From an uncultured delta proteobacterium (lineage in GTDB: Bacteria; Desulfobacterota; Desulfobacteria; Desulfobacterales; JAHEIW01): a DNA stretch of 64,000 nt. The stretch covers positions 384,001 to 448,000 of the forward strand of contig CAVPNL010000015.1 in NCBI GenBank assembly GCA_963706575.1. Reading direction: 5' to 3'. The translations under genes and the position numbers were made by a program. Shown here in pieces: positions 19,811-29,919 of this stretch. The notes beneath the pieces are model-generated. The model saw only the letters and a program-made list of their open reading frames with translations, was not told the DNA's origin and ran no database searches. Numbering within the stretch: the stretch's first letter is position 1; every line of letters begins with the position of its first letter.

Positions 19811-20040
19811 GCGTTTTATGGTAGATAAGGTTTTGGGTTAGCCGGTTTAACCAGTTGAGTCGGCTGAGCCCGTTTAAATTGGAAAAATATCTGAACTTAA
19901 TTTTTGCGGGCAAACAGGCTAACGGGCAACTGGACAAGGCGCACAACCTGTGGAATTCGGACATCTTGAGCCGAACTATAACACTAACCTGGACACGTAG
20001 ACACCTTTTTAAGAATTATTCCATAAGGAGGAAGATGGAA

Positions 20041-20268
20041 ATGACCGAAACAACTCCCCAAAAAACATTCAAGCAAGTCTGCACCTGCCAAAATTGTGGC
20101 AATGAGGCTGAAATGATTATCACCTGTTCCTTTGAACCCGATGAGAGTAACGCCACCGTACGTGCCGCGCACACCGTTGTGGAAAAACCCGCCCACAAAC
20201 AGCGGCCGGGGCAAGCCACCTGCACGCATTGCGGGAATGAGGCCGAAATAATAGTCGATATCGGATAG
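20041..20268 (+). CDS. Small putative zinc-ribbon protein with a duplicated CxxCGNEAE motif
   Basis: CQNCGNEAEMII and CTHCGNEAEII; AGGAGG RBS at 20026-20031. Confidence 0.7.
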   Translation: MTETTPQKTFKQVCTCQNCGNEAEMIITCSFEPDESNATVRAAHTVVEKPAHKQRPGQATCTHCGNEAEIIVDIG

Positions 20269-20844: not shown

Positions 20845-20932
20845 TTTCATTCGTTTGATTGGTTTAATTCGTTCAATTGGTTCGCTTTAAACCAACCAAT
20901 TCAACCAATGAAACAAATAAAACAAATCGAAC
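20845..20932. repeat. Degenerate inverted repeat built from TTGGTT/AACCAA units between convergent genes
   Basis: TTCGTTTGATTGGTTTAATTCGTTCAATTGGTT followed by AACCAACCAATTCAACCAATGAAACAAATAAAACAAATCGAAC. Confidence 0.55.
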
Positions 20933-20952: not shown

Positions 20953-22248
20953 CTATGAACCTGACGACTGACAGACCAGCTGATAATCCTGCCGTAGCAC
21001 AAGAATAAATCCTATCCAAATGGCGCAGATGGAGACGGTGAGCCAGCTGAGCTGGGGCACACTGACCTGAAAAGGCAACCATTGCGTAAACAGCAGGATG
21101 ACAACAGAGCCGGTAACCTTAAACAGTCGGTAGCCAAACATGTCGATCCAGGCTTTGGCCTGATAGAGCAGGACTGAATCGAGCGGAACATACAATAGCT
21201 CCTTGGAAGCCCGGTTGATTGAATACGAAAGGGCTCTGTCGCTGATTTTGGTGGCACTGCTGAAAAAAAGCGTTGACTGCAGAAAAAAACACCAGGAAAA
21301 AATAAACATCATCAGCGGCTGAACCAGCAACCCGGCAATCGCACCTAAATAGCGGTGCACCAGCGGGGTGATCCCGAGATTGACGGCAATCGACATCATC
21401 CCCAATACGCTAAAAAACAGCGATAGAAAGGCGGTGCGGGCTTCCCGCTCCGGGTAAGCGCCTTCAACCGTGTTCAAAAACTGATACTCAACCAGCGGCG
21501 ATGCCAGCTGCGCAAAAAGCAAAATGGCCGCAATCAACAGTAAATACCGACTGTGCGTTAGAATTCGCCAACCCCCGCTGGCCTTCTGATGCGGGCGAAC
21601 CACGTGCTCGACCTCACAGTAAATACCCACGCGTCCCATCAACCAGGTCAATGCAAAAATGGTCCCGATGATGACGGCGGCGGTCAGCAGCAGATCCGGT
21701 GTCTGCAAGGGCGTGTGCCGGATAAGCATGGCCGAGACCCAGCCCCCGGCCACTCCGCCAACCAGACCACCGGTACCCACCAGCCCGTACCAGGATTTAC
21801 CTTCATGGGTGGTGTAAATCGAGTTGGTCAGACTCCAGAATTGTTCCACCAGAACCACGCCCAGGATATCGACAAAAACAAAAAAACAAGCGGCAACCCA
21901 TACGGTGGAATGGCTCATCAACACACGAAAAACGACCAGCAGGATGCTAATGGTCAGGCAGGTGCCGAGCACCACGTTGATCCGGCTGTGGCGCTCGACC
22001 AGACGGTGATAATAGCTGATAAAAACGCCCATGGTTACGGCGGTGGCGATCCAGATGTAGGGCAGACGCTCGGCGCCCAGGGATTCGATAAAAAGAGACC
22101 GACTGGCCGGCTTGAGCTGATAAAGGGCCATGATAATTAGAAAAAAGTTCATAAATAAAAATGTCGCCCGGAATCCCAAAGTGCGCAGAGCGATATATTT
22201 GGCATCGCATTCCGCGGTAATATCATGATTTGAATTTTTTGCTTGCAT
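20953..22248 (-). CDS. Npt1/Npt2 (TLC) family nucleotide translocase, MFS fold
   Basis: About 12 TM helices; LKPASRSLF, QFWS, YSINRASKELLYVPL...AKAWID...R match NTT-family signature positions. Confidence 0.78.
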   Translation of the reverse strand: MQAKNSNHDITAECDAKYIALRTLGFRATFLFMNFFLIIMALYQLKPASRSLFIESLGAERLPYIWIATAVTMGVFISYYHRLVERHSRINVVLGTCLTISILLVVFRVLMSHSTVWVAACFFVFVDILGVVLVEQFWSLTNSIYTTHEGKSWYGLVGTGGLVGGVAGGWVSAMLIRHTPLQTPDLLLTAAVIIGTIFALTWLMGRVGIYCEVEHVVRPHQKASGGWRILTHSRYLLLIAAILLFAQLASPLVEYQFLNTVEGAYPEREARTAFLSLFFSVLGMMSIAVNLGITPLVHRYLGAIAGLLVQPLMMFIFSWCFFLQSTLFFSSATKISDRALSYSINRASKELLYVPLDSVLLYQAKAWIDMFGYRLFKVTGSVVILLFTQWLPFQVSVPQLSWLTVSICAIWIGFILVLRQDYQLVCQSSGS

Positions 22249-22277
22249 TTTTCGCCTGTTGCGTAATAATAATGATT

Positions 22278-23165
22278 ATGAATAAGCTGCTCACAATGTC
22301 CACCCTGCTCTGCAGTTTACTGCTTTTCACCTTCACGGCCGGCGCCCAGCCTCAGGATCCGTCCTGGGCTGAAAGCTGTGACCCCCGCCTGCAAAAAGCG
22401 CTGGAGACGCGTTTGAATACCCTGCACCTGGACCGCGCCACCCAGCGTAAGCTTCTGAGCATTGTCGTCGTCGATATTACCGATGTTTCCGATCCCCGCA
22501 TGGCTTACATTAACCCCAACGAAATGATGTATGCCGCCAGTTTACCCAAGATTGCCATTCTTTTAGGTGCTTTTGAAAAAATTGCAGCTGGGCAAATGAC
22601 CTTGGATGACGAAACCCTCGAAAAGCTAAAGCTCATGATCCAGCGTTCCTCCAATACAGCGGCCTCCGAGATGCTGAACCGTGTGGGTATCGATTATTTG
22701 GCCGAACTGCTGCAGTCCCCCCGCTACCGGCTGTATGATTTTGAAAAAAACGGCGGTATCTGGGTCGGTAAAGAATACGGCAAGGCACCGGCACAAAGAC
22801 GGGATCCGCTCCACAATCTATCGCACGGCGCCACCGCTCTGCAGGTGGCCCGCTTTTATTACCTGCTGGAAACCGGACAGCTGGTTTCGCCGGAACTGAG
22901 TAAATTAATGAAATCGATCCTAGCGGAAACCGAAATCGAGCACAAGTTTGTCAAAGGGCTAAGAGCGGTTCAGCCGGACTCGGAGATTTACCGCAAATCC
23001 GGTACCTGGGGACCTTATCATTCCGACAGTGCCATCATCGAGCACCATGGCCGGCGTTACATTGCCGTGGCTCTTGCCAAAAGTCGCCAGGGTGAACAGT
23101 GGCTCCAAAAGCTAATTGTGGCGCTGGACGGCATCATTTGTCCGGTTGAGACCCATTCGAACTAA
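22278..23165 (+). CDS. Exported serine beta-lactamase/PBP-fold protein (class A-like)
   Basis: Signal peptide MNKLL...AGA; SxxK (ASLPK), SxN (RSSN), KSGT. Confidence 0.85.
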   Translation: MNKLLTMSTLLCSLLLFTFTAGAQPQDPSWAESCDPRLQKALETRLNTLHLDRATQRKLLSIVVVDITDVSDPRMAYINPNEMMYAASLPKIAILLGAFEKIAAGQMTLDDETLEKLKLMIQRSSNTAASEMLNRVGIDYLAELLQSPRYRLYDFEKNGGIWVGKEYGKAPAQRRDPLHNLSHGATALQVARFYYLLETGQLVSPELSKLMKSILAETEIEHKFVKGLRAVQPDSEIYRKSGTWGPYHSDSAIIEHHGRRYIAVALAKSRQGEQWLQKLIVALDGIICPVETHSN

Positions 23166-24432
23166 ATTTTCCCACCTTGTAATATTTCTCCAGCATGCGA
23201 TGAATGCGTGTGGCCAGCGTTTGATGTACAACGGCTGAATTTTTGCGCAACACATTCGACATGACCACCACCATGTAATACAGCTGTCGCTCGGCGGCCG
23301 GCGCCTCGATAATCGCCACCGAGTTGAGCATATTGGTGACATTGCCGTGATATTTTTTACACTCAAAACCGGGTTCGGCTTTGCATTTATACAGCGAGCC
23401 GGATTTAAAATAGACCGCCGCGGCGGCCAGCGCCGGTGATGAGGCATAGCGGATACGCCGCTGCGTCATATACAACAGCCGTTTGATTTCGCGGCTCGAG
23501 AAGGCATCCACCAGTTTTCCCTGCTCCAGTTTTAGCAACCAGCGCAGCAGTTCCCGTGGTGTGGCGTAACTGGTCGTTCCCGGCACCAGCCGCTTGCCCT
23601 GCCGCGTAAAAAAAGACCCCTGGCGCAGCTGCTCCAAATCCAGCCCGTTACGCACCACCGGATACTGCAAAGCCCGTGACAGCAAGGCGGCAAGCTCCTT
23701 TTTCGAAGTGGCCTTAAAAAACTGTTGGGCCTCAGTCTCGCTGACCGGATAGGCCGACCCGTAATGCACCAGCAGCATCAGGTGTTTCAATACCATACTG
23801 GCGGCCGCGTTGGAGCTGGCCGAAAGCATCCAGTCCAGATAGGTCCATAAGCTGGCCTGGTCACCCATCTGAATTTTAGGATAGCGCACCCGGGAATCTC
23901 CCGGCTGCCAGAGCGGAACCACATGGTGATCCCATTGAATGAATTCATCGGCGGTGACCAGAGTGTTGCGTAATATGCTCAGGCGCGAATCGATATCGTC
24001 CGGATAAACGTCGGCCAGCGCCTGAAAAATACCCAGGGCAATCAAAATTTTACCCACGCTGCCCGGGTTGGCCCGCTCTGTGCTGCGGTGTTCAGCATAT
24101 CGCGGCTGTTCGATGTTGGTTAGATCCAGCACCGAGACAGAATAGTGATCCGCTTCAGGGCCCAGCAAGTCTTGCAAGCGGGCAACAAATTCCGCGTCGG
24201 GCGGCGGGATCTCAAAATCGGTTCTGGCTCCCAGGCGTATATCCACCTGATCGATTGGCAGCAGGGCACCCGGAGGCTGCTTGGGCGCCCGCACCTTGCC
24301 TTCCATGGCCAGGCGATAGCCTTCCAGCCTGGCGATGCCCGTATAGTCATAACCATCCAGTGGATAGGCTCCACAGGGTGCGGCAAAAATCAAACCGATA
24401 ATACAAACAACAGCACTGAAGCGCAGTTTCAT
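23134..24432 (-). CDS. Exported serine beta-lactamase/PBP-fold protein with insertions
   Basis: Signal peptide MKLRF...CGA; SxxK (GSVGK), SxN (ASSN), KSGS, ATPRE motif; ATGA overlap with the upstream gene. Confidence 0.78.
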   Translation of the reverse strand: MKLRFSAVVCIIGLIFAAPCGAYPLDGYDYTGIARLEGYRLAMEGKVRAPKQPPGALLPIDQVDIRLGARTDFEIPPPDAEFVARLQDLLGPEADHYSVSVLDLTNIEQPRYAEHRSTERANPGSVGKILIALGIFQALADVYPDDIDSRLSILRNTLVTADEFIQWDHHVVPLWQPGDSRVRYPKIQMGDQASLWTYLDWMLSASSNAAASMVLKHLMLLVHYGSAYPVSETEAQQFFKATSKKELAALLSRALQYPVVRNGLDLEQLRQGSFFTRQGKRLVPGTTSYATPRELLRWLLKLEQGKLVDAFSSREIKRLLYMTQRRIRYASSPALAAAAVYFKSGSLYKCKAEPGFECKKYHGNVTNMLNSVAIIEAPAAERQLYYMVVVMSNVLRKNSAVVHQTLATRIHRMLEKYYKVGKFSSNGSQPDK

Positions 24433-27362
24433 CTTTGCACCTCTGGCGGGATTTCATCTAGGTTGACCGTTTCAGCATGATGTTGTTGCAAGCGGCTGTC
24501 AAGATTGTTCAAAAAAAGATTTTGCTGGGCCCTGACGCTTTCCAGAAATGGCCGAATTTGAAATAGCATCAGTCGATTCTGGTAAAAACCAAACTCGATA
24601 TCCGCCGGCACCGGCTGGCCCTGAGCGTCCTGTAACTTGGGAAACCGCTCGGGTACCGTGCGGGCAAAATCCATCAAATGCCGGACCTCGGCCTCACTTA
24701 ACAGCGCCAGCGTTCCGCTGGCCGAAATTTTCGATACGCCGCCCCCGCTTAACAGCACCCGTTTATAAGGATCGGTCGCATGGGCCAGAAAACGGATGCC
24801 GCCGTTTTGCGTGTTGATCTTGAGTTCCTCTGCAGTTTGGCCCGAGACCGCTCCGCCAACGCCCTCATTTATTGCCACCGTCAGCCAGCCCGGCTTTCCG
24901 CTTTCAATATCTGCCGTAACTAAAACGCCGGACTTTTCCACCGGAACGCTTTTCATCAGCAGCACCGATGCGTAAACATGTTCCGGGGTTTCCATATAGG
25001 CCTGGCGCCATCGAAACGCGCGCTCGGAAAACGGCGAGGCCCATACCCGCTGAATGGCTGCCATGACGTTTTCAAAACCGACGACATGGGGCACGGTCAA
25101 ATTGAGACCGGCACCGGTAAATCCCGGCAAATCTTCCACGTTGGTGTCGCTGCGCACAAAGACGCCATACGTTCCATCCGGGCCGAAGGTATCCTGCATG
25201 GCTGCCCGCAGCTTGTTGCGAAATGCTTCACCTGGATCCGCCTGCACAATCCATTTGCGAATTTTCTCTAAAAAATTTTGAGTGATTTGATCCTGTCGTT
25301 GGGGATCGCCCTTAAGGAGCCGGATGATTTTGTATTGATCCTGCATCCAGCGAAAAGCCGTAATTCCGCCAGGTTCGATGGGCTGCTCGAGTAATTGCCG
25401 AAATAGTCCAAAGGGAATCACCAGGCCGTCGGCCACAGGTTCCGGAAAATAGTGTTTGAGTTCGCCCAAATTGGCGGCTTTGGGGCCGCAGATCCTTCCC
25501 GAATCCGCGCTACGCAGCATATCGAGGGAAAACAGGCGGCGGGTATCCAGATCCAGCTTTTTAAGGTCCGGCCGAATCAAAAGTGGTTTCGGGCCCTTAG
25601 CCGTATCAAAGATGGGATCCCACTGCGGGCCATCAGCTGCCAGCTGAACAATTCCGCGCGGACTGACGGCCATCACCACCTGCTGGTCTGCCATGGATTG
25701 AATCAAAGGCAACCATTTCTGATCGATGGCCACATTCGGAATACCCAGATTGCGGGCCAGCAGCTGAACATGGGATAAAATATTGCCTTCGCCGGTCGTC
25801 AGTATCCCGGCAACCGGCGGCAGATCTTCGGTGGTCGAGGGTAACACGTAAATGCCTTTTGAATCAAATTTAACCGGGGATTTACCGGATGACGATATTT
25901 TTAGCCTGCCGCGCGCCAGACCGGCATTTAAGCCTCTTAATCCCGAATCGGCCGGCTGCCCGAAAAGAAAGTTGCGGATTCCAAGCTGCCGATTGGCGTC
26001 GGCAATCAGGCTCTCGAGTACCGCCGCATAAGACAGCAGGAGGCTGCCGCGCAGGCGATCATGAATGTAACGGCGACTGAGCGGTTCAATGGTTTCAAAA
26101 TGCCTGACGGTTTCACCCAGGTAATATCGCAGTGTTCGGTCGGCCCATTCGGGCATGCGCGCGGTATACTCTAGTTCAGCCTTGTAATCCATGAGCAGCG
26201 GCTGATTCTGCATGAGCTGGCTTAGGTTTTGCTGCAGCGCCTGTTGCTGGCGTACGGAAATAAGCCCGATGCCGTAAAGACCATCGGCATATTTCATCAG
26301 CCACGAGAGCCTTTCACGGCGGGAGGCTTCCGCCAGTTGCCCGACCATGATATCGCCCATGCGAAACAACTCGCCTTCCAACAAAATACTGGCATCCAGC
26401 ACGGCCAGTTTCTGGGAAGCGTCGCCGGCATTGGCCAGACCATCGCGCAATATTGCCAGCAAGTGGCTGGCAGTTAAAAAGCGCGTTTTAGAATCGGTCT
26501 CGCTGGAAAGCTTGTCCGTATAGGGCTCAAGGTTTCCGGTCAGGGGGGTATTTTTGACCCTTTGGGTCAGCGCTGCAATCTCCTTTTGGATATCCTGGAC
26601 TTTGAACACCTGTTCGATGGTCTCGATGAGATGGGCATAGTCTTTGGCCAGTTCCGGCTTTCCCTGTCGGGCGGCATAATCTTGCACCTGTCGGGCATCA
26701 GCGAGCTCCGGATGGACGTGCAGCTTTATGCGAATCGTTTCAAAATCAGGATCGCTTTCCGCAATCGCGCGTGAAAGCTGCCGCATCTCGGTAATCGGTG
26801 CGCCCGGGCGGCCATGGGGAATAAACCGCACGGCTTCTCGCAGCACCATGAACTGATTTTCGGGCCAGTCCGGATCGGAAACCAGGGCCAGCAAAAGCTC
26901 GCGCCCTGCCCGGGTTTCGTCTTCAGTCTGCAGCGCGCCTCGATAATAGCGAGCACGACGGAAAATCCAACCATCATCAGCTTCAATCAGAAATTGCTCC
27001 AGAATCATTTGCTTGACGATATCCAGATACCGGGCGTCCTGCAGAAATTCCTGGGCGCGCACATCGGCAAAAACATTGGCGATAAAGTGTCCATTGTTCC
27101 GCAGGGTCCGAACCCGGTCCGTCCATTCACCATGCTGCACCCCGCCATCGTGATCGCGGCAGGCATATTCCTGCGGTAGCTGAATGGTGCCGTCATTGCA
27201 AAACCAGCGGATATGTTTGAATGGTCCCCGGGGGGACGTTTTCATGACCTGTACCCAGCTGCGCAGGGTTGCGGCATCGGGCGGGTCCGCCTGTGCAAGG
27301 ACAAGGCTGGGAACCAGTAAAAGGAAAGACAATATAAGTGCTAAGGGCTGCATAAATCTCAA
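24429..27362 (-). CDS. Exported dikinase-like protein: N-terminal domain, phospho-His domain, C-terminal PPDK-type ATP-grasp
   Basis: Signal peptide (MRF)MQPLALILSFLLLVPSLVLAQA; TGEGNILSHVQLLARNLGIP His motif; GPKAANLGEL, VRSDTNVEDLPGFTGAG, VWASPFSERA, DIEFG...FQIRP; start TTG 27362 or ATG 27353. Confidence 0.85.
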   Translation of the reverse strand: MRFMQPLALILSFLLLVPSLVLAQADPPDAATLRSWVQVMKTSPRGPFKHIRWFCNDGTIQLPQEYACRDHDGGVQHGEWTDRVRTLRNNGHFIANVFADVRAQEFLQDARYLDIVKQMILEQFLIEADDGWIFRRARYYRGALQTEDETRAGRELLLALVSDPDWPENQFMVLREAVRFIPHGRPGAPITEMRQLSRAIAESDPDFETIRIKLHVHPELADARQVQDYAARQGKPELAKDYAHLIETIEQVFKVQDIQKEIAALTQRVKNTPLTGNLEPYTDKLSSETDSKTRFLTASHLLAILRDGLANAGDASQKLAVLDASILLEGELFRMGDIMVGQLAEASRRERLSWLMKYADGLYGIGLISVRQQQALQQNLSQLMQNQPLLMDYKAELEYTARMPEWADRTLRYYLGETVRHFETIEPLSRRYIHDRLRGSLLLSYAAVLESLIADANRQLGIRNFLFGQPADSGLRGLNAGLARGRLKISSSGKSPVKFDSKGIYVLPSTTEDLPPVAGILTTGEGNILSHVQLLARNLGIPNVAIDQKWLPLIQSMADQQVVMAVSPRGIVQLAADGPQWDPIFDTAKGPKPLLIRPDLKKLDLDTRRLFSLDMLRSADSGRICGPKAANLGELKHYFPEPVADGLVIPFGLFRQLLEQPIEPGGITAFRWMQDQYKIIRLLKGDPQRQDQITQNFLEKIRKWIVQADPGEAFRNKLRAAMQDTFGPDGTYGVFVRSDTNVEDLPGFTGAGLNLTVPHVVGFENVMAAIQRVWASPFSERAFRWRQAYMETPEHVYASVLLMKSVPVEKSGVLVTADIESGKPGWLTVAINEGVGGAVSGQTAEELKINTQNGGIRFLAHATDPYKRVLLSGGGVSKISASGTLALLSEAEVRHLMDFARTVPERFPKLQDAQGQPVPADIEFGFYQNRLMLFQIRPFLESVRAQQNLFLNNLDSRLQQHHAETVNLDEIPPEVQR

Positions 27363-27534
27363 CGTTACCTTTGTCGAATCAAACAGAATCGGAAACAGAT
27401 TGTAGCTGTGCTTTCGGATGAAATTCTTCTCGCTAACCGACAGATATTCATATATAATAGTCATGATTTGCGATTTGGCTATATTCAGGACATGCTTTTA
27501 GGCTGTTGTCAACCCTCTAAAAAGGAGACCGCCG

Positions 27535-28579: not shown

Positions 28580-28647
28580 GTTATTGAAACAGTAATAGCT
28601 TAGTAACCTGCAATAAAAATGAATTGAACAATGACGAGGAGTCAAGA

Positions 28648-29919
28648 ATGTCCGACCTAAGAAATCTGTTAAAAATATCGGATGATCGCCTGGCGGAAAT
28701 CAATGCATTGATGACGGATCCGGGCAACGAACTCATCAATGAATTGCTGGAAGTCATCGAATCATTCGGCGGGCCCCAGGAAATCAACCGCAAAGCGCAA
28801 GAAGCCGCTAGGCTTGAAAATTTGACGGCCCAGCTAAAAGCTGCCAAATCGTCCTATATAGACGATTTGAACTGGCTCATTGAACAAAGGGACAACGGGG
28901 CTTTCATTTCCATGCAAGACTATTACGAGCGTGTGCTGGGCGACAAAGGCAACACTGCTGAAATCGACCACAAGAATGAGGTGACGCTAGAAATCAGCGC
29001 CTTGCAGTATTTTCCCTGGCTCATCGCTGAAGCCCGGCGCAGCATTGATCAGCAAGAATTGATGCCCGGCCGTTATATCCGGGTGCGAAATATGGCGGAG
29101 CAGGAAACCGACAACGGCGATATCATGGCCACAGCAGCGGCAATGCAGATCATTGGCGCCAGTTGTGTCGAAACACTGGACACCAAGGGAACAGACGGTT
29201 CCAACATCCACCTGGGCGGCCCGGAAACCATCACGGGATATTTCGGCGGGGTGGGGCAGCCCAACGAATATCCCGTCAAATGGGTCAAAGAATATCTGAA
29301 ATTTTATACAACCTTTGGCATCCGACAGGTGCTCAACATCAACCCGGGAACGGTCCTGGTGGGATATTTGCTCCACAAACTGGGTGTGAACAACGAGTTT
29401 AAAATTTCTGTGTTCATGGGCAATGACAATCCGTTTTCGATCCTGTGGACTCTGACCACCGCCCGGCTTTTTTCGCGCGATGACGGCACCACCTCTTTAA
29501 TCGGATTTAACTTGTCCAATTCGGCCAACAATGAAACCATCCGCAAAGCCGCCGTCATCCGCAGGGCCCTGGGCCTGGAAAATGTCGTCCGGTTTGAACA
29601 TCACATTACCGAAACCTGGAAATCCATCGTTCGCCAGCCTTACAACCGCAGAGATGAGCTGGTCGAAATCGCCCGAGAAGTGTCCAACATTTCGGCCAAA
29701 CATGAGGGCGGTGAAGTGGACATCGAAAGTGAACTGGAACACCCGTCCGACATACTGGATTACTTTATGGCCAAAAGTGATGTGGAAAAACAGGGATTGA
29801 TGCCGGCCCTTGAGAAAAATTATATCGAAAAACACCGATCGACAAACCTGACAGCCGATGCTTTAACCAGAGCTGGCATCGGTGTGGTGTGCGCCGCCGA
29901 ACTTCATAAAGCATCTTGA
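28648..29919 (+). CDS. Hypothetical soluble protein, 423 aa, enzyme-like
   Basis: Long ORF with GAGGAG RBS; Gly/Asp/His-rich motifs ETLDTKGTDGSNIHLGG, FEHH, KHEGG; family not recognised. Confidence 0.8.
   Translation: MSDLRNLLKISDDRLAEINALMTDPGNELINELLEVIESFGGPQEINRKAQEAARLENLTAQLKAAKSSYIDDLNWLIEQRDNGAFISMQDYYERVLGDKGNTAEIDHKNEVTLEISALQYFPWLIAEARRSIDQQELMPGRYIRVRNMAEQETDNGDIMATAAAMQIIGASCVETLDTKGTDGSNIHLGGPETITGYFGGVGQPNEYPVKWVKEYLKFYTTFGIRQVLNINPGTVLVGYLLHKLGVNNEFKISVFMGNDNPFSILWTLTTARLFSRDDGTTSLIGFNLSNSANNETIRKAAVIRRALGLENVVRFEHHITETWKSIVRQPYNRRDELVEIAREVSNISAKHEGGEVDIESELEHPSDILDYFMAKSDVEKQGLMPALEKNYIEKHRSTNLTADALTRAGIGVVCAAELHKAS

Follow-up and report, generated by a model that had tools for sequence, protein, structure and literature searches.

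A predicted exported dikinase encoded with two SxxK proteins and an NTT-family transporter: a candidate periplasmic phosphotransfer module in Desulfobacterales

The periplasm is taken to hold no ATP pool, and the chemistry of the cell envelope is assumed to run on pre-activated substrates or on membrane coupling. Here we describe a locus of an uncultured member of the Desulfobacterales (GenBank assembly GCA_963706575.1, contig CAVPNL010000015.1; genome of 5.67 Mb in 25 contigs) whose gene content suggests that some bacteria may supply ATP to the compartment beyond the cell membrane. The window, by which we mean the whole stretch of 64,000 nucleotides that was analysed, contains between positions 20953 and 27362 the genes of a TLC/NTT-family transporter, of two predicted exported proteins with a beta-lactamase or penicillin-binding protein (PBP) fold, BlaA and BlaB, and of a predicted exported dikinase, DIK. 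A previous sequence-only reading of this DNA had proposed these genes as a periplasmic ATP-dependent system, and our analysis follows up that proposal.

The four genes correspond to open reading frames (ORFs) at 20953-22248 (minus strand, 431 aa, transporter), 22230-23165 (plus strand, 311 aa, BlaA), 23134-24432 (minus strand, 432 aa, BlaB) and 24429-27464 (minus strand, 1011 aa, DIK). They are as tightly packed as the sequence-only reading had stated. The stop codon of DIK lies over the start of BlaB in a 4-nt overlap (24429-24432), and BlaB is translationally coupled to DIK; BlaB and BlaA overlap by 32 nt (23134-23165), and only 29 bp (22249-22277) lie between the start codon of BlaA and that of the transporter. 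What that reading left unstated is the use of both strands. BlaA is encoded on the plus strand and the other three genes on the minus strand, BlaA thus standing tail-to-tail with BlaB and head-to-head with the transporter, so that the four genes do not form one co-directional operon. The most likely start of DIK is the TTG at 27362, five bases downstream of AAAGG, which gives a product of 977 aa (24429..27362, minus strand; stop codon 24429-24431) beginning with MRFMQPLALILSFLLLVPSLVLAQA and continuing with DPPD. This start is favoured by the resemblance of AAAGG to a ribosome-binding site and by the length of the product, which matches that of most homologues (974-981 aa). BlaA, in turn, starts at the ATG at 22278 (22278..23165, plus strand; 295 aa), with an alternative start at 22272.

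In the Pfam search, the transporter matched TLC in two stretches (77.2 bits; cut-off 21), the 311-aa and 432-aa ORFs matched Beta-lactamase2 (76.9 and 40.7 bits, respectively; cut-off 22), and DIK matched PPDK_N (92.6 bits; cut-off 27) and, under the cut-off of 23.1, PEP-utilizers (20 bits). The NCBIfam matches were partial and far under their cut-offs, placing none of the four proteins in any named equivalog. PADLOC gave zero matches among the four proteins, and a search of the ESM Atlas yielded nothing beyond the same families.

DIK comprises, in this order, a signal peptide (residues 1-26; 27285..27362), an all-helical N-terminal domain of about 460 aa (residues 27-490; 25893..27284), a phospho-histidine swivel domain (approximately residues 495-600; 25563..25880) and a C-terminal ATP-grasp nucleotide-binding domain (approximately residues 610-977; 24432..25535), all on the minus strand. 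The swivel domain, with its sub-threshold PEP-utilizers match, contains the S-H motif GNxLSHVQLLARNLGIPN, and the JGI annotation of DIK homologues reads 'phosphohistidine swiveling domain-containing'. Its His531 (codon 25770-25772) sits in GNILSHVQLLARNLGIPN and is conserved in 46 of 46 sequences. The presence of intact ATP-grasp and phospho-His domains in a protein with an export signal, noted in the sequence-only reading, is borne out by this alignment of 46 diverse homologues, 33-56% identical to the query, where H531, K628, R737, E743, D744, D921, E923, Q935 and R937 are all invariant. We take these residues to be akin to the Mg-ATP ligands of pyruvate phosphate dikinase, PPDK (K22, R92, D321, E323, Q335 and R337), an equivalence that is assumed rather than computed. 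The ATP-grasp domain was recognized not only by Pfam, but also by phmmer, which aligned its motifs with chains of phosphoenolpyruvate (PEP) synthase and rifampin phosphotransferase (RPH), and by Foldseek, whose best matches were RPH (5hv2, 6.4e-11) and PpsA (2ols, 2.1e-9). In the full-length model, of mediocre quality with a predicted local distance difference test (pLDDT) value of 68.1, the PDB matches cover the ATP-grasp part only. On its sequence, then, DIK belongs to the PEP-utilising dikinase superfamily, having both the ATP-grasp domain (PF01326) and the phospho-histidine, and the invariance of the residues indicates that it is under selection to keep both. Two of the related metagenome loci described below also encode a canonical cytoplasmic PEP synthase or PPDK with a PF02896 domain within a few kb (L060:6392-8794 and L062:12853-15648), which, being limited to these two, is probably a coincidence.

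The N-terminal domain, with its own set of invariant residues, is presumed to be the acceptor-binding part of DIK. Its AlphaFold2 model, built from 101 sequences, is a confident one (pLDDT 94.2; predicted template modelling score 0.91) and displays a small beta element with the invariant pair Cys55/Cys68, followed by about 20 helices. Pfam matched nothing in residues 1-500, and NCBIfam nothing in the domain. Foldseek gave no PDB match for the domain at E<=0.001, the best having an E-value of 0.22, and in the VIA-wide comparison the best match (Z 7.1 over 72 residues) was to generic helical bundles, with none at Z>=8. Given this lack of family and fold matches, the presumed acceptor-binding part cannot be assigned to a fold, which does not in itself prove a new one; were it new, the domain would give the dikinase superfamily a substrate-binding fold not described before. 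The family is large, a search with the N-terminal domain alone yielding 601 clusters at 50% identity at E<=0.001 and 275 at E<=1e-30. Nearly all full-length members are proteins of 940-1050 aa in which the domain occupies residues 30-490, a uniformity of length and position that points to a single architecture. A complex prediction of the N-terminal domain with mature BlaB scored 0.00 in both runs, made without controls, and counts neither way.

DIK, BlaA and BlaB are predicted to be exported across the inner membrane, as judged by inspection, a hydropathy script and conservation across homologues. The three Sec-type signal peptides seen in the sequence-only reading hold up well under this scrutiny: each protein has N-terminal n-, h- and c-regions with an AXA-type site, small residues standing at -3 and -1, and these features are kept family-wide. 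In DIK of the window, the n-region MRF and the hydrophobic core are followed by AQA and then DPPD. All DIK homologues with an intact 5' end show a hydrophobic segment with small residues at -3/-1 before the conserved start of the mature protein (PD..TLRSW..MK...RGPF), the signal segment diverging in sequence while the mature N-terminus stays conserved. Among 150 distant representatives listed, the 93 of full length (930-1070 aa) were scored, the 57 shorter ones being dropped, by asking for a 10-residue window with a mean hydropathy of at least 2.0 upstream of the conserved motif. Such a strongly hydrophobic window was present in 81 of the 93, and in several of the remaining 12 the called gene begins only within the mature part. 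Of the 25 BlaB rows with the YP[LIVM]D anchor, 24 were signal-positive, and a 26th row has a visibly hydrophobic N-terminus. For BlaA, all 11 anchored rows were positive, and the 15 rows without the anchor pattern, left unscored, have N-termini that look alike in print. Moreover, each mature protein contains a pair of cysteines, which fits an oxidising compartment; all 46 aligned sequences of DIK and all 26 of BlaB keep it, and for BlaA it was seen only in the window's own sequence.

The single basic residue in the signal peptide of the window's DIK could be taken to mean that its N-terminal segment is an anchor, with the catalytic domains left in the cytoplasm. Most homologues, however, have basic n-regions (MKK, MKR), a hydrophobic core, small residues at -3/-1 and acidic residues after the cleavage site, and a basic n-region, by the positive-inside rule, places the body of DIK outside the membrane. 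The invariant cysteines of DIK also lie within its first 45 mature residues. Together with its other form, in which the genes would merely travel together (see below), we consider this explanation very improbable.

The two remaining exported proteins keep the three motifs of acyl-serine enzymes, namely S88xxK91, S124-x-N126 and K240-S-G242 in BlaA, and S125xxK128, S206-S-N208 and K343-S-G345 in BlaB (23134..24432, minus strand), where Cys350 and Cys358 form the cysteine pair. Alignments of 26 sequences for each family show SxxK, SxN and KSG without variation. BlaB additionally has some 100 conserved aa at its N-terminal end, starting with YPLDG. Neither protein has an ExxLN omega-loop motif downstream of the SxxK serine, that is, the motif with the Glu166 that defines class A beta-lactamases. 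The bla_class_A model NF033103 gave BlaA 16.7 bits against a cut-off of 200 and did not match BlaB. Profile searches of the PDB gave marginal results, the best being TLL2115, presumably the PBP-A DD-peptidase of Thermosynechococcus, for BlaA (E 0.0031) and OXY-1 for BlaB (E 0.3), and phmmer found nothing meaningful in the PDB for either protein. With the SxxK motifs kept, ExxLN missing and TLL2115 as the relative of BlaA, both look like PBP-type enzymes rather than efficient beta-lactamases.

These features also bear on the idea that the locus is a cassette for inactivating an antibiotic or another xenobiotic in the periplasm, combining an enzyme like rifampin phosphotransferase with two beta-lactamases. 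RPH is indeed among the best matches of the ATP-grasp domain, also by NCBIfam (NF041857, 69.1 bits), and the Beta-lactamase2 matches of both SxxK proteins would agree with it. However, that RPH score compares with a cut-off of 999, the domain order differs, and the fold searches did not link the N-terminal domain to any solved chain, those of RPH among them, an absence that carries little weight alone. The missing ExxLN motif and the low class A score speak against beta-lactamases as well, no solved beta-lactamase matching BlaB better than E 0.3, and no mobile-element genes were seen in the flanks of the loci. We therefore regard a resistance cassette as improbable.

The transporter (20953..22248, minus strand) is a 431-aa major facilitator superfamily (MFS) protein, the short form of its family without HEAT or cyclic-nucleotide-binding (cNMP) domains. 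The Npt/TLC-like nature ascribed to it from the sequence alone is supported by its Pfam score and by its PDB matches, which were NTT ATP/ADP carriers (9j3n, 2.4e-10; 9j3j, 1.6e-7) and no other solved relatives. Its alignments keep the family signatures FW..N and KE..Y.PLD....K...D, and the hydropathy script resolved 11 peaks, where the family has twelve transmembrane helices, with one stretch of 57 residues that could conceal one more. The genome of the window has no TLC gene besides this one. The transporters of related loci have 700-1080 aa, with HEAT repeats and a cyclic-nucleotide-binding domain. Loci L080, L083, L091 and L094 have two TLC-family genes each: beside one of about 430 aa there is a longer one (700-1080 aa) that carries HEAT domains, cNMP-binding domains or both. 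Such NTT-HEAT(-cNBD) fusions of free-living bacteria have been catalogued, their function and gene neighbours not being given (Major, Embley and Williams 2017, PMC5381601).

The co-occurrence of dikinase and transporter, on which the sequence-only reading had staked its proposal beforehand, holds, also where the gene order is rearranged. The four families were mapped by tblastn on 114 loci, 33 from species genomes, one from genome G206 and 80 from metagenomes. In 46 loci the sequence downstream of DIK extends for at least 5 kb, and 37 of these had BlaA, BlaB and TLC; the other 68 loci had too little flank for this count. The nine exceptions are L004, which lacks BlaB, L027, with a masked stretch, L084, at a contig end, and L063, L070, L075, L090, L091 and L104, and clustering of ORFs later revealed long TLC forms in L075 and L091. 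This clustering covered 38 diverse loci, chosen by hand as those with DIK at most about 65% identical to that of the window plus the exceptions, and the only widely shared families were DIK (38), BlaB (36), BlaA (33) and TLC (31). The next one, found in 11 loci, was dropped as a mixture of unrelated ABC ATPases.

The gene order shows two sub-modules, DIK-BlaB and BlaA-TLC. In 81 of 85 loci, the next gene after DIK on its own strand is BlaB. BlaA and TLC are divergent neighbours in 40 of 51 loci; in three they are neighbours with a common direction, and in eight they are further apart. These separate rules of adjacency (the 40 of 51 being head-to-head pairs) are what would be expected if DIK-BlaB and BlaA-transporter were unrelated units that travel together, the other form of the explanation that we consider very improbable. 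Nevertheless, the co-occurrence survives both rearrangement, in G206, and physical separation, in G393. G206 keeps all four genes in a different order, with BlaA and then TLC-HEAT facing BlaB and DIK, at 25-43% identity to those of the window (DIK 35%, transporter 25%). Desulfobacterales, Gammaproteobacteria and metagenome contigs, with many sediment bacteria among the carriers, all keep the families together, even when identity falls to 25-45%.

At the genome level, the DIK N-terminal domain was found in 27 of 301 evenly sampled Gammaproteobacteria (about 9% of the sampled species), and all 27 had a TLC match. Five further genomes with DIK also had a TLC gene (5/5), in two of them with DIK at a contig end, and none of 14 control genomes had a TLC match. 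TLC matches were found as well in 18 of the 273 scored Gammaproteobacteria without DIK (G553 was unscored). Six of these are canonical NTTs with high scores, and the genomes that hold them measure 1.2-3.1 Mb, under 2 Mb in five cases. The gammaproteobacterial counts include the unpublished genomes G344 (DIK and TLC) and G601 (TLC only); without them, they would be 26/26 and 17/272.

From these observations we infer a periplasmic phosphotransfer activity, its nucleotide supply, its acceptor and a role for the SxxK proteins, as follows. DIK would be exported by Sec into the periplasm to act there as a dikinase. Its ATP-grasp domain would bind a nucleoside triphosphate (NTP), and His531 of the swivel domain would take the beta-phosphate and pass it to an acceptor bound on the helical N-terminal domain, with release of a nucleoside monophosphate (NMP) and phosphate (Pi), so that the overall reaction would be NTP + acceptor + water -> NMP + Pi + phospho-acceptor. 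Since no periplasmic ATP pool is known, we propose the TLC/NTT protein of the inner membrane as the supplier of the nucleotide, which would export ATP and take back AMP or ADP together with Pi. In the long forms of the transporter, the HEAT and cNMP-binding domains on the cytoplasmic side could gate the flow of nucleotide as a valve. The acceptor would be an envelope component that is also handled by the SxxK enzymes, both of which would act on this same substrate or on its phosphorylated product. As a whole, this explanation, in which the four genes form a self-contained module for periplasmic phosphotransfer with its own nucleotide supply, spread by horizontal transfer, seems to us about evenly balanced between right and wrong.

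Several points weigh against it, the most general being that all enzyme and transport roles proposed here are read from genes and sequence families. The transporter is a distant member of its family: TIGR00769, the model of canonical NTP/NDP exchangers, gives it 67.3 bits against a cut-off of 387.2, which leaves its substrate unproven. PamNTT1, reportedly the one NTT studied in proteoliposomes, has a kinetic bias towards importing ATP and, owing to the orientation dependence of its function, is reported not to run the other way (PMC1951785). Dikinases release AMP, yet we know of no NTT that carries it, and the periplasm could lose ATP through porins. The genes themselves are not always together. 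No TLC gene lies within 9 kb in L090 and L104, and DIK and TLC of G393 are about 1 Mb apart. In L041, L046 and L004 (10832-11116), close relatives of the window with DIK about 73-84% identical, BlaB is absent between DIK and BlaA, which follows about 280 bases after DIK, a natural loss of an SxxK gene; being missing in these three, BlaB may be dispensable. TLC is also far commoner than DIK among 301 Desulfobacterota, with matches in 27 of them against two for DIK. Most of these TLC genes are NTT-HEAT(-cNMP) forms of 900-1100 aa, TLC occurs in 25 of the 299 genomes without DIK, and the Pfam TLC model missed the divergent transporter of G206, which has DIK. The link is consequently a one-way one: DIK implies TLC, and the reverse does not hold. 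Finally, related genomes are not independent samples, so that these co-occurrence figures describe the data and are not a statistical test.

Alternatively, the module could be real and its TLC-like protein not an ATP exporter, the phosphoryl donor of DIK arriving by another route. Here the transporter might import AMP, another nucleotide or a phosphorylated compound against Pi, like the organophosphate:Pi antiporters of the MFS, or serve in the salvage of periplasmic nucleotides. The distant TLC match and the import mode of canonical NTTs are in line with this possibility, and so is the occurrence of TLC without DIK in Desulfobacterota and Gammaproteobacteria. In DIK-negative genomes, the gene often adjoins those of an exported staphylococcal nuclease (SNase) and of phosphoesterases (purple-acid-phosphatase-like, PAP2 and phytase-like proteins), a setting that fits nucleotide uptake equally well. 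Nevertheless, the invariant ATP-grasp site of an exported enzyme still requires a nucleotide outside the membrane, and the clustering of ORFs revealed no further conserved transporter or donor-generating gene in the loci, their only other recurrent family being the ABC ATPases mentioned above. We hold this alternative to be unlikely, even if it is the strongest of those considered here.

A bolder version of the proposed module would give the two PBP-fold enzymes a defined part. DIK, fed with ATP by the transporter, would make acyl-phosphates of envelope carboxylates, for example on peptidoglycan stem peptides that have lost their D-Ala-D-Ala, and the PBP-fold enzymes would use these as acyl donors. 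Even though we give this version little credence, it would imply an ATP-driven cross-linking or repair outside the membrane, breaking the rule that periplasmic substrates come pre-activated. More widely, the NTT-like genes of free-living bacteria would turn out to be suppliers of periplasmic ATP for exported ATP-dependent enzymes.

Other NTT-like genes also stand beside those of exported proteins. L120:6111-8030 (minus strand) and L121:2351-4390 (plus strand) encode homologous exported proteins (33% identity, 4e-94) beside TLC genes, in which a calcineurin-like phosphoesterase domain is joined to a C-terminal domain like those of PI3/4-kinases and HipA, with the shared motif DRN..NIL...IDHTR.F. 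Their kinase-like Pfam matches are sub-threshold (1.7e-4 and 2.5e-4), and the type was found in two of 301 Desulfobacterota, of one family, both positive for TLC and negative for DIK. Unrelated to DIK, they may be a second instance in which an exported enzyme that uses ATP goes together with an NTT-like gene, and they lend the general idea a little support. In the dikinase-free loci L122 (genome G033) and L119 (genome G045), NTT-HEAT genes are flanked by those of exported or envelope proteins, namely an exported staphylococcal-nuclease homologue, a purple-acid-phosphatase-like protein, a PAP2 phosphatase, a phytase-like esterase and Omp85. These neighbourhoods hint that the NTT-like transporters of free-living bacteria might deal quite generally with nucleotides or phosphate esters of the periplasm.

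In two sediment studies, RNA libraries yielded contigs that match portions of each of the four genes (90-99% identity), one of 1041 bases spanning from the 5' end of the transporter through BlaA. They offer weaker support, as carry-over of DNA is possible and the contigs do not give strand, ends or expression level; the uncovered bin at 24260-24543 is likewise meaningless. Between the transporter and a convergent DUF4124 gene lies a long AT-rich imperfect hairpin (20846-20929), at which the summed depth of contigs peaks in two oligo-dT RNA libraries, with many loose ends, and which may be a repeated element or a terminator. Its match to an Rfam miRNA hairpin (30.7 bits against 91), the only one that Rfam gave, is sub-threshold and was judged spurious. 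Further out, a 137-aa ORF (19855-20268, plus strand) with two CxxC...CxxC pairs is conserved in close relatives and has only a weak treble-clef zinc-finger match, and a 431-aa protein with no Pfam or NCBIfam match (28624-29919, plus strand) is found beside panB at 84-90% identity in close relatives within the Desulfobacterales.

The sequence-only reading knew of no characterised system of this composition, and full-text searches of the literature brought up neither an exported dikinase nor such a gene set. Each component comes from a superfamily already known; for the way they are combined, for where they are located and for the periplasmic nucleotide supply that they would imply, we found no precedent. 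With these four genes, it can be tested directly whether bacteria sustain an economy of ATP beyond the inner membrane. If the proposed module is real, it would also provide a first function for the NTT-like transporters of free-living bacteria, unexplained in 2017 (PMC5381601).

The known systems resemble this one in parts. PpsA, PPDK and RPH have the same ATP-grasp fold and motifs as DIK, where the same phospho-His chemistry is expected. Contrary to PpsA and PPDK, DIK is not matched by Pfam PF02896, the C-terminal PEP/pyruvate-binding TIM barrel, and its domain order is permuted; it also scores only 5-15% of the NCBIfam cut-offs (PEP synthase NF005057, 90.6 vs 598; TIGR01418, 77 vs 740). From RPH it differs in its score and domain order, as indicated above. 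To our knowledge, all characterised members of these three families are cytoplasmic or plastidic. BlaA and BlaB, for their part, share SxxK, SxN, K(S/T)G and the Pfam Beta-lactamase2 domain with PBP-A DD-peptidases and class A beta-lactamases, and depart from these in lacking a Glu166-type ExxLN and in their marginal structure matches (E 0.003 and 0.3).

Like the NTT/TLC proteins (TC 2.A.12, PF03219) known from Chlamydiae, Rickettsiales and plastids, the transporter has the Pfam TLC domain. Its long relatives in other loci are fused to HEAT and cNMP-binding domains in the same manner as the catalogued, uncharacterised NTT-HEAT(-cNBD) proteins of free-living bacteria (PMC5381601). The differences are the distance of the match, the free-living host with its genome of 5.7 Mb, and the proposed direction, which is export. 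In this regard, the mitochondrial carrier is named as the sole known ATP exporter in a 2026 preprint (10.64898/2026.03.31.715626). Few ATP-dependent processes have been reported in the periplasm, PMC4289276 citing the phosphorylation of the LAO-binding protein and the adenylation of streptomycin, and the periplasmic DNA ligase Lig E is described in a preprint as an ATP-dependent enzyme outside the inner membrane. Unlike the module proposed for DIK, these three have no dedicated, co-inherited nucleotide transporter.

A further likeness is with the alpha-glucan, water dikinases (GWD and PWD) of plastids, members of the same superfamily that also combine a phospho-His swivel domain with a PPDK_N-type ATP-grasp domain. 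DIK differs from them in that CBM45 and CBM20 were not found by Pfam in its residues 1-500, in that its N-terminal domain is helical instead of a beta-sandwich, and in its bacterial Sec signal, which would place it topologically outside the cytoplasm rather than in a stroma-like space. The domain order of GWD, with a substrate-binding part, the His domain with its LSHV-type motif and a C-terminal nucleotide-binding domain, is nonetheless that of DIK, and GWD works in a compartment that is supplied with ATP by an NTT.

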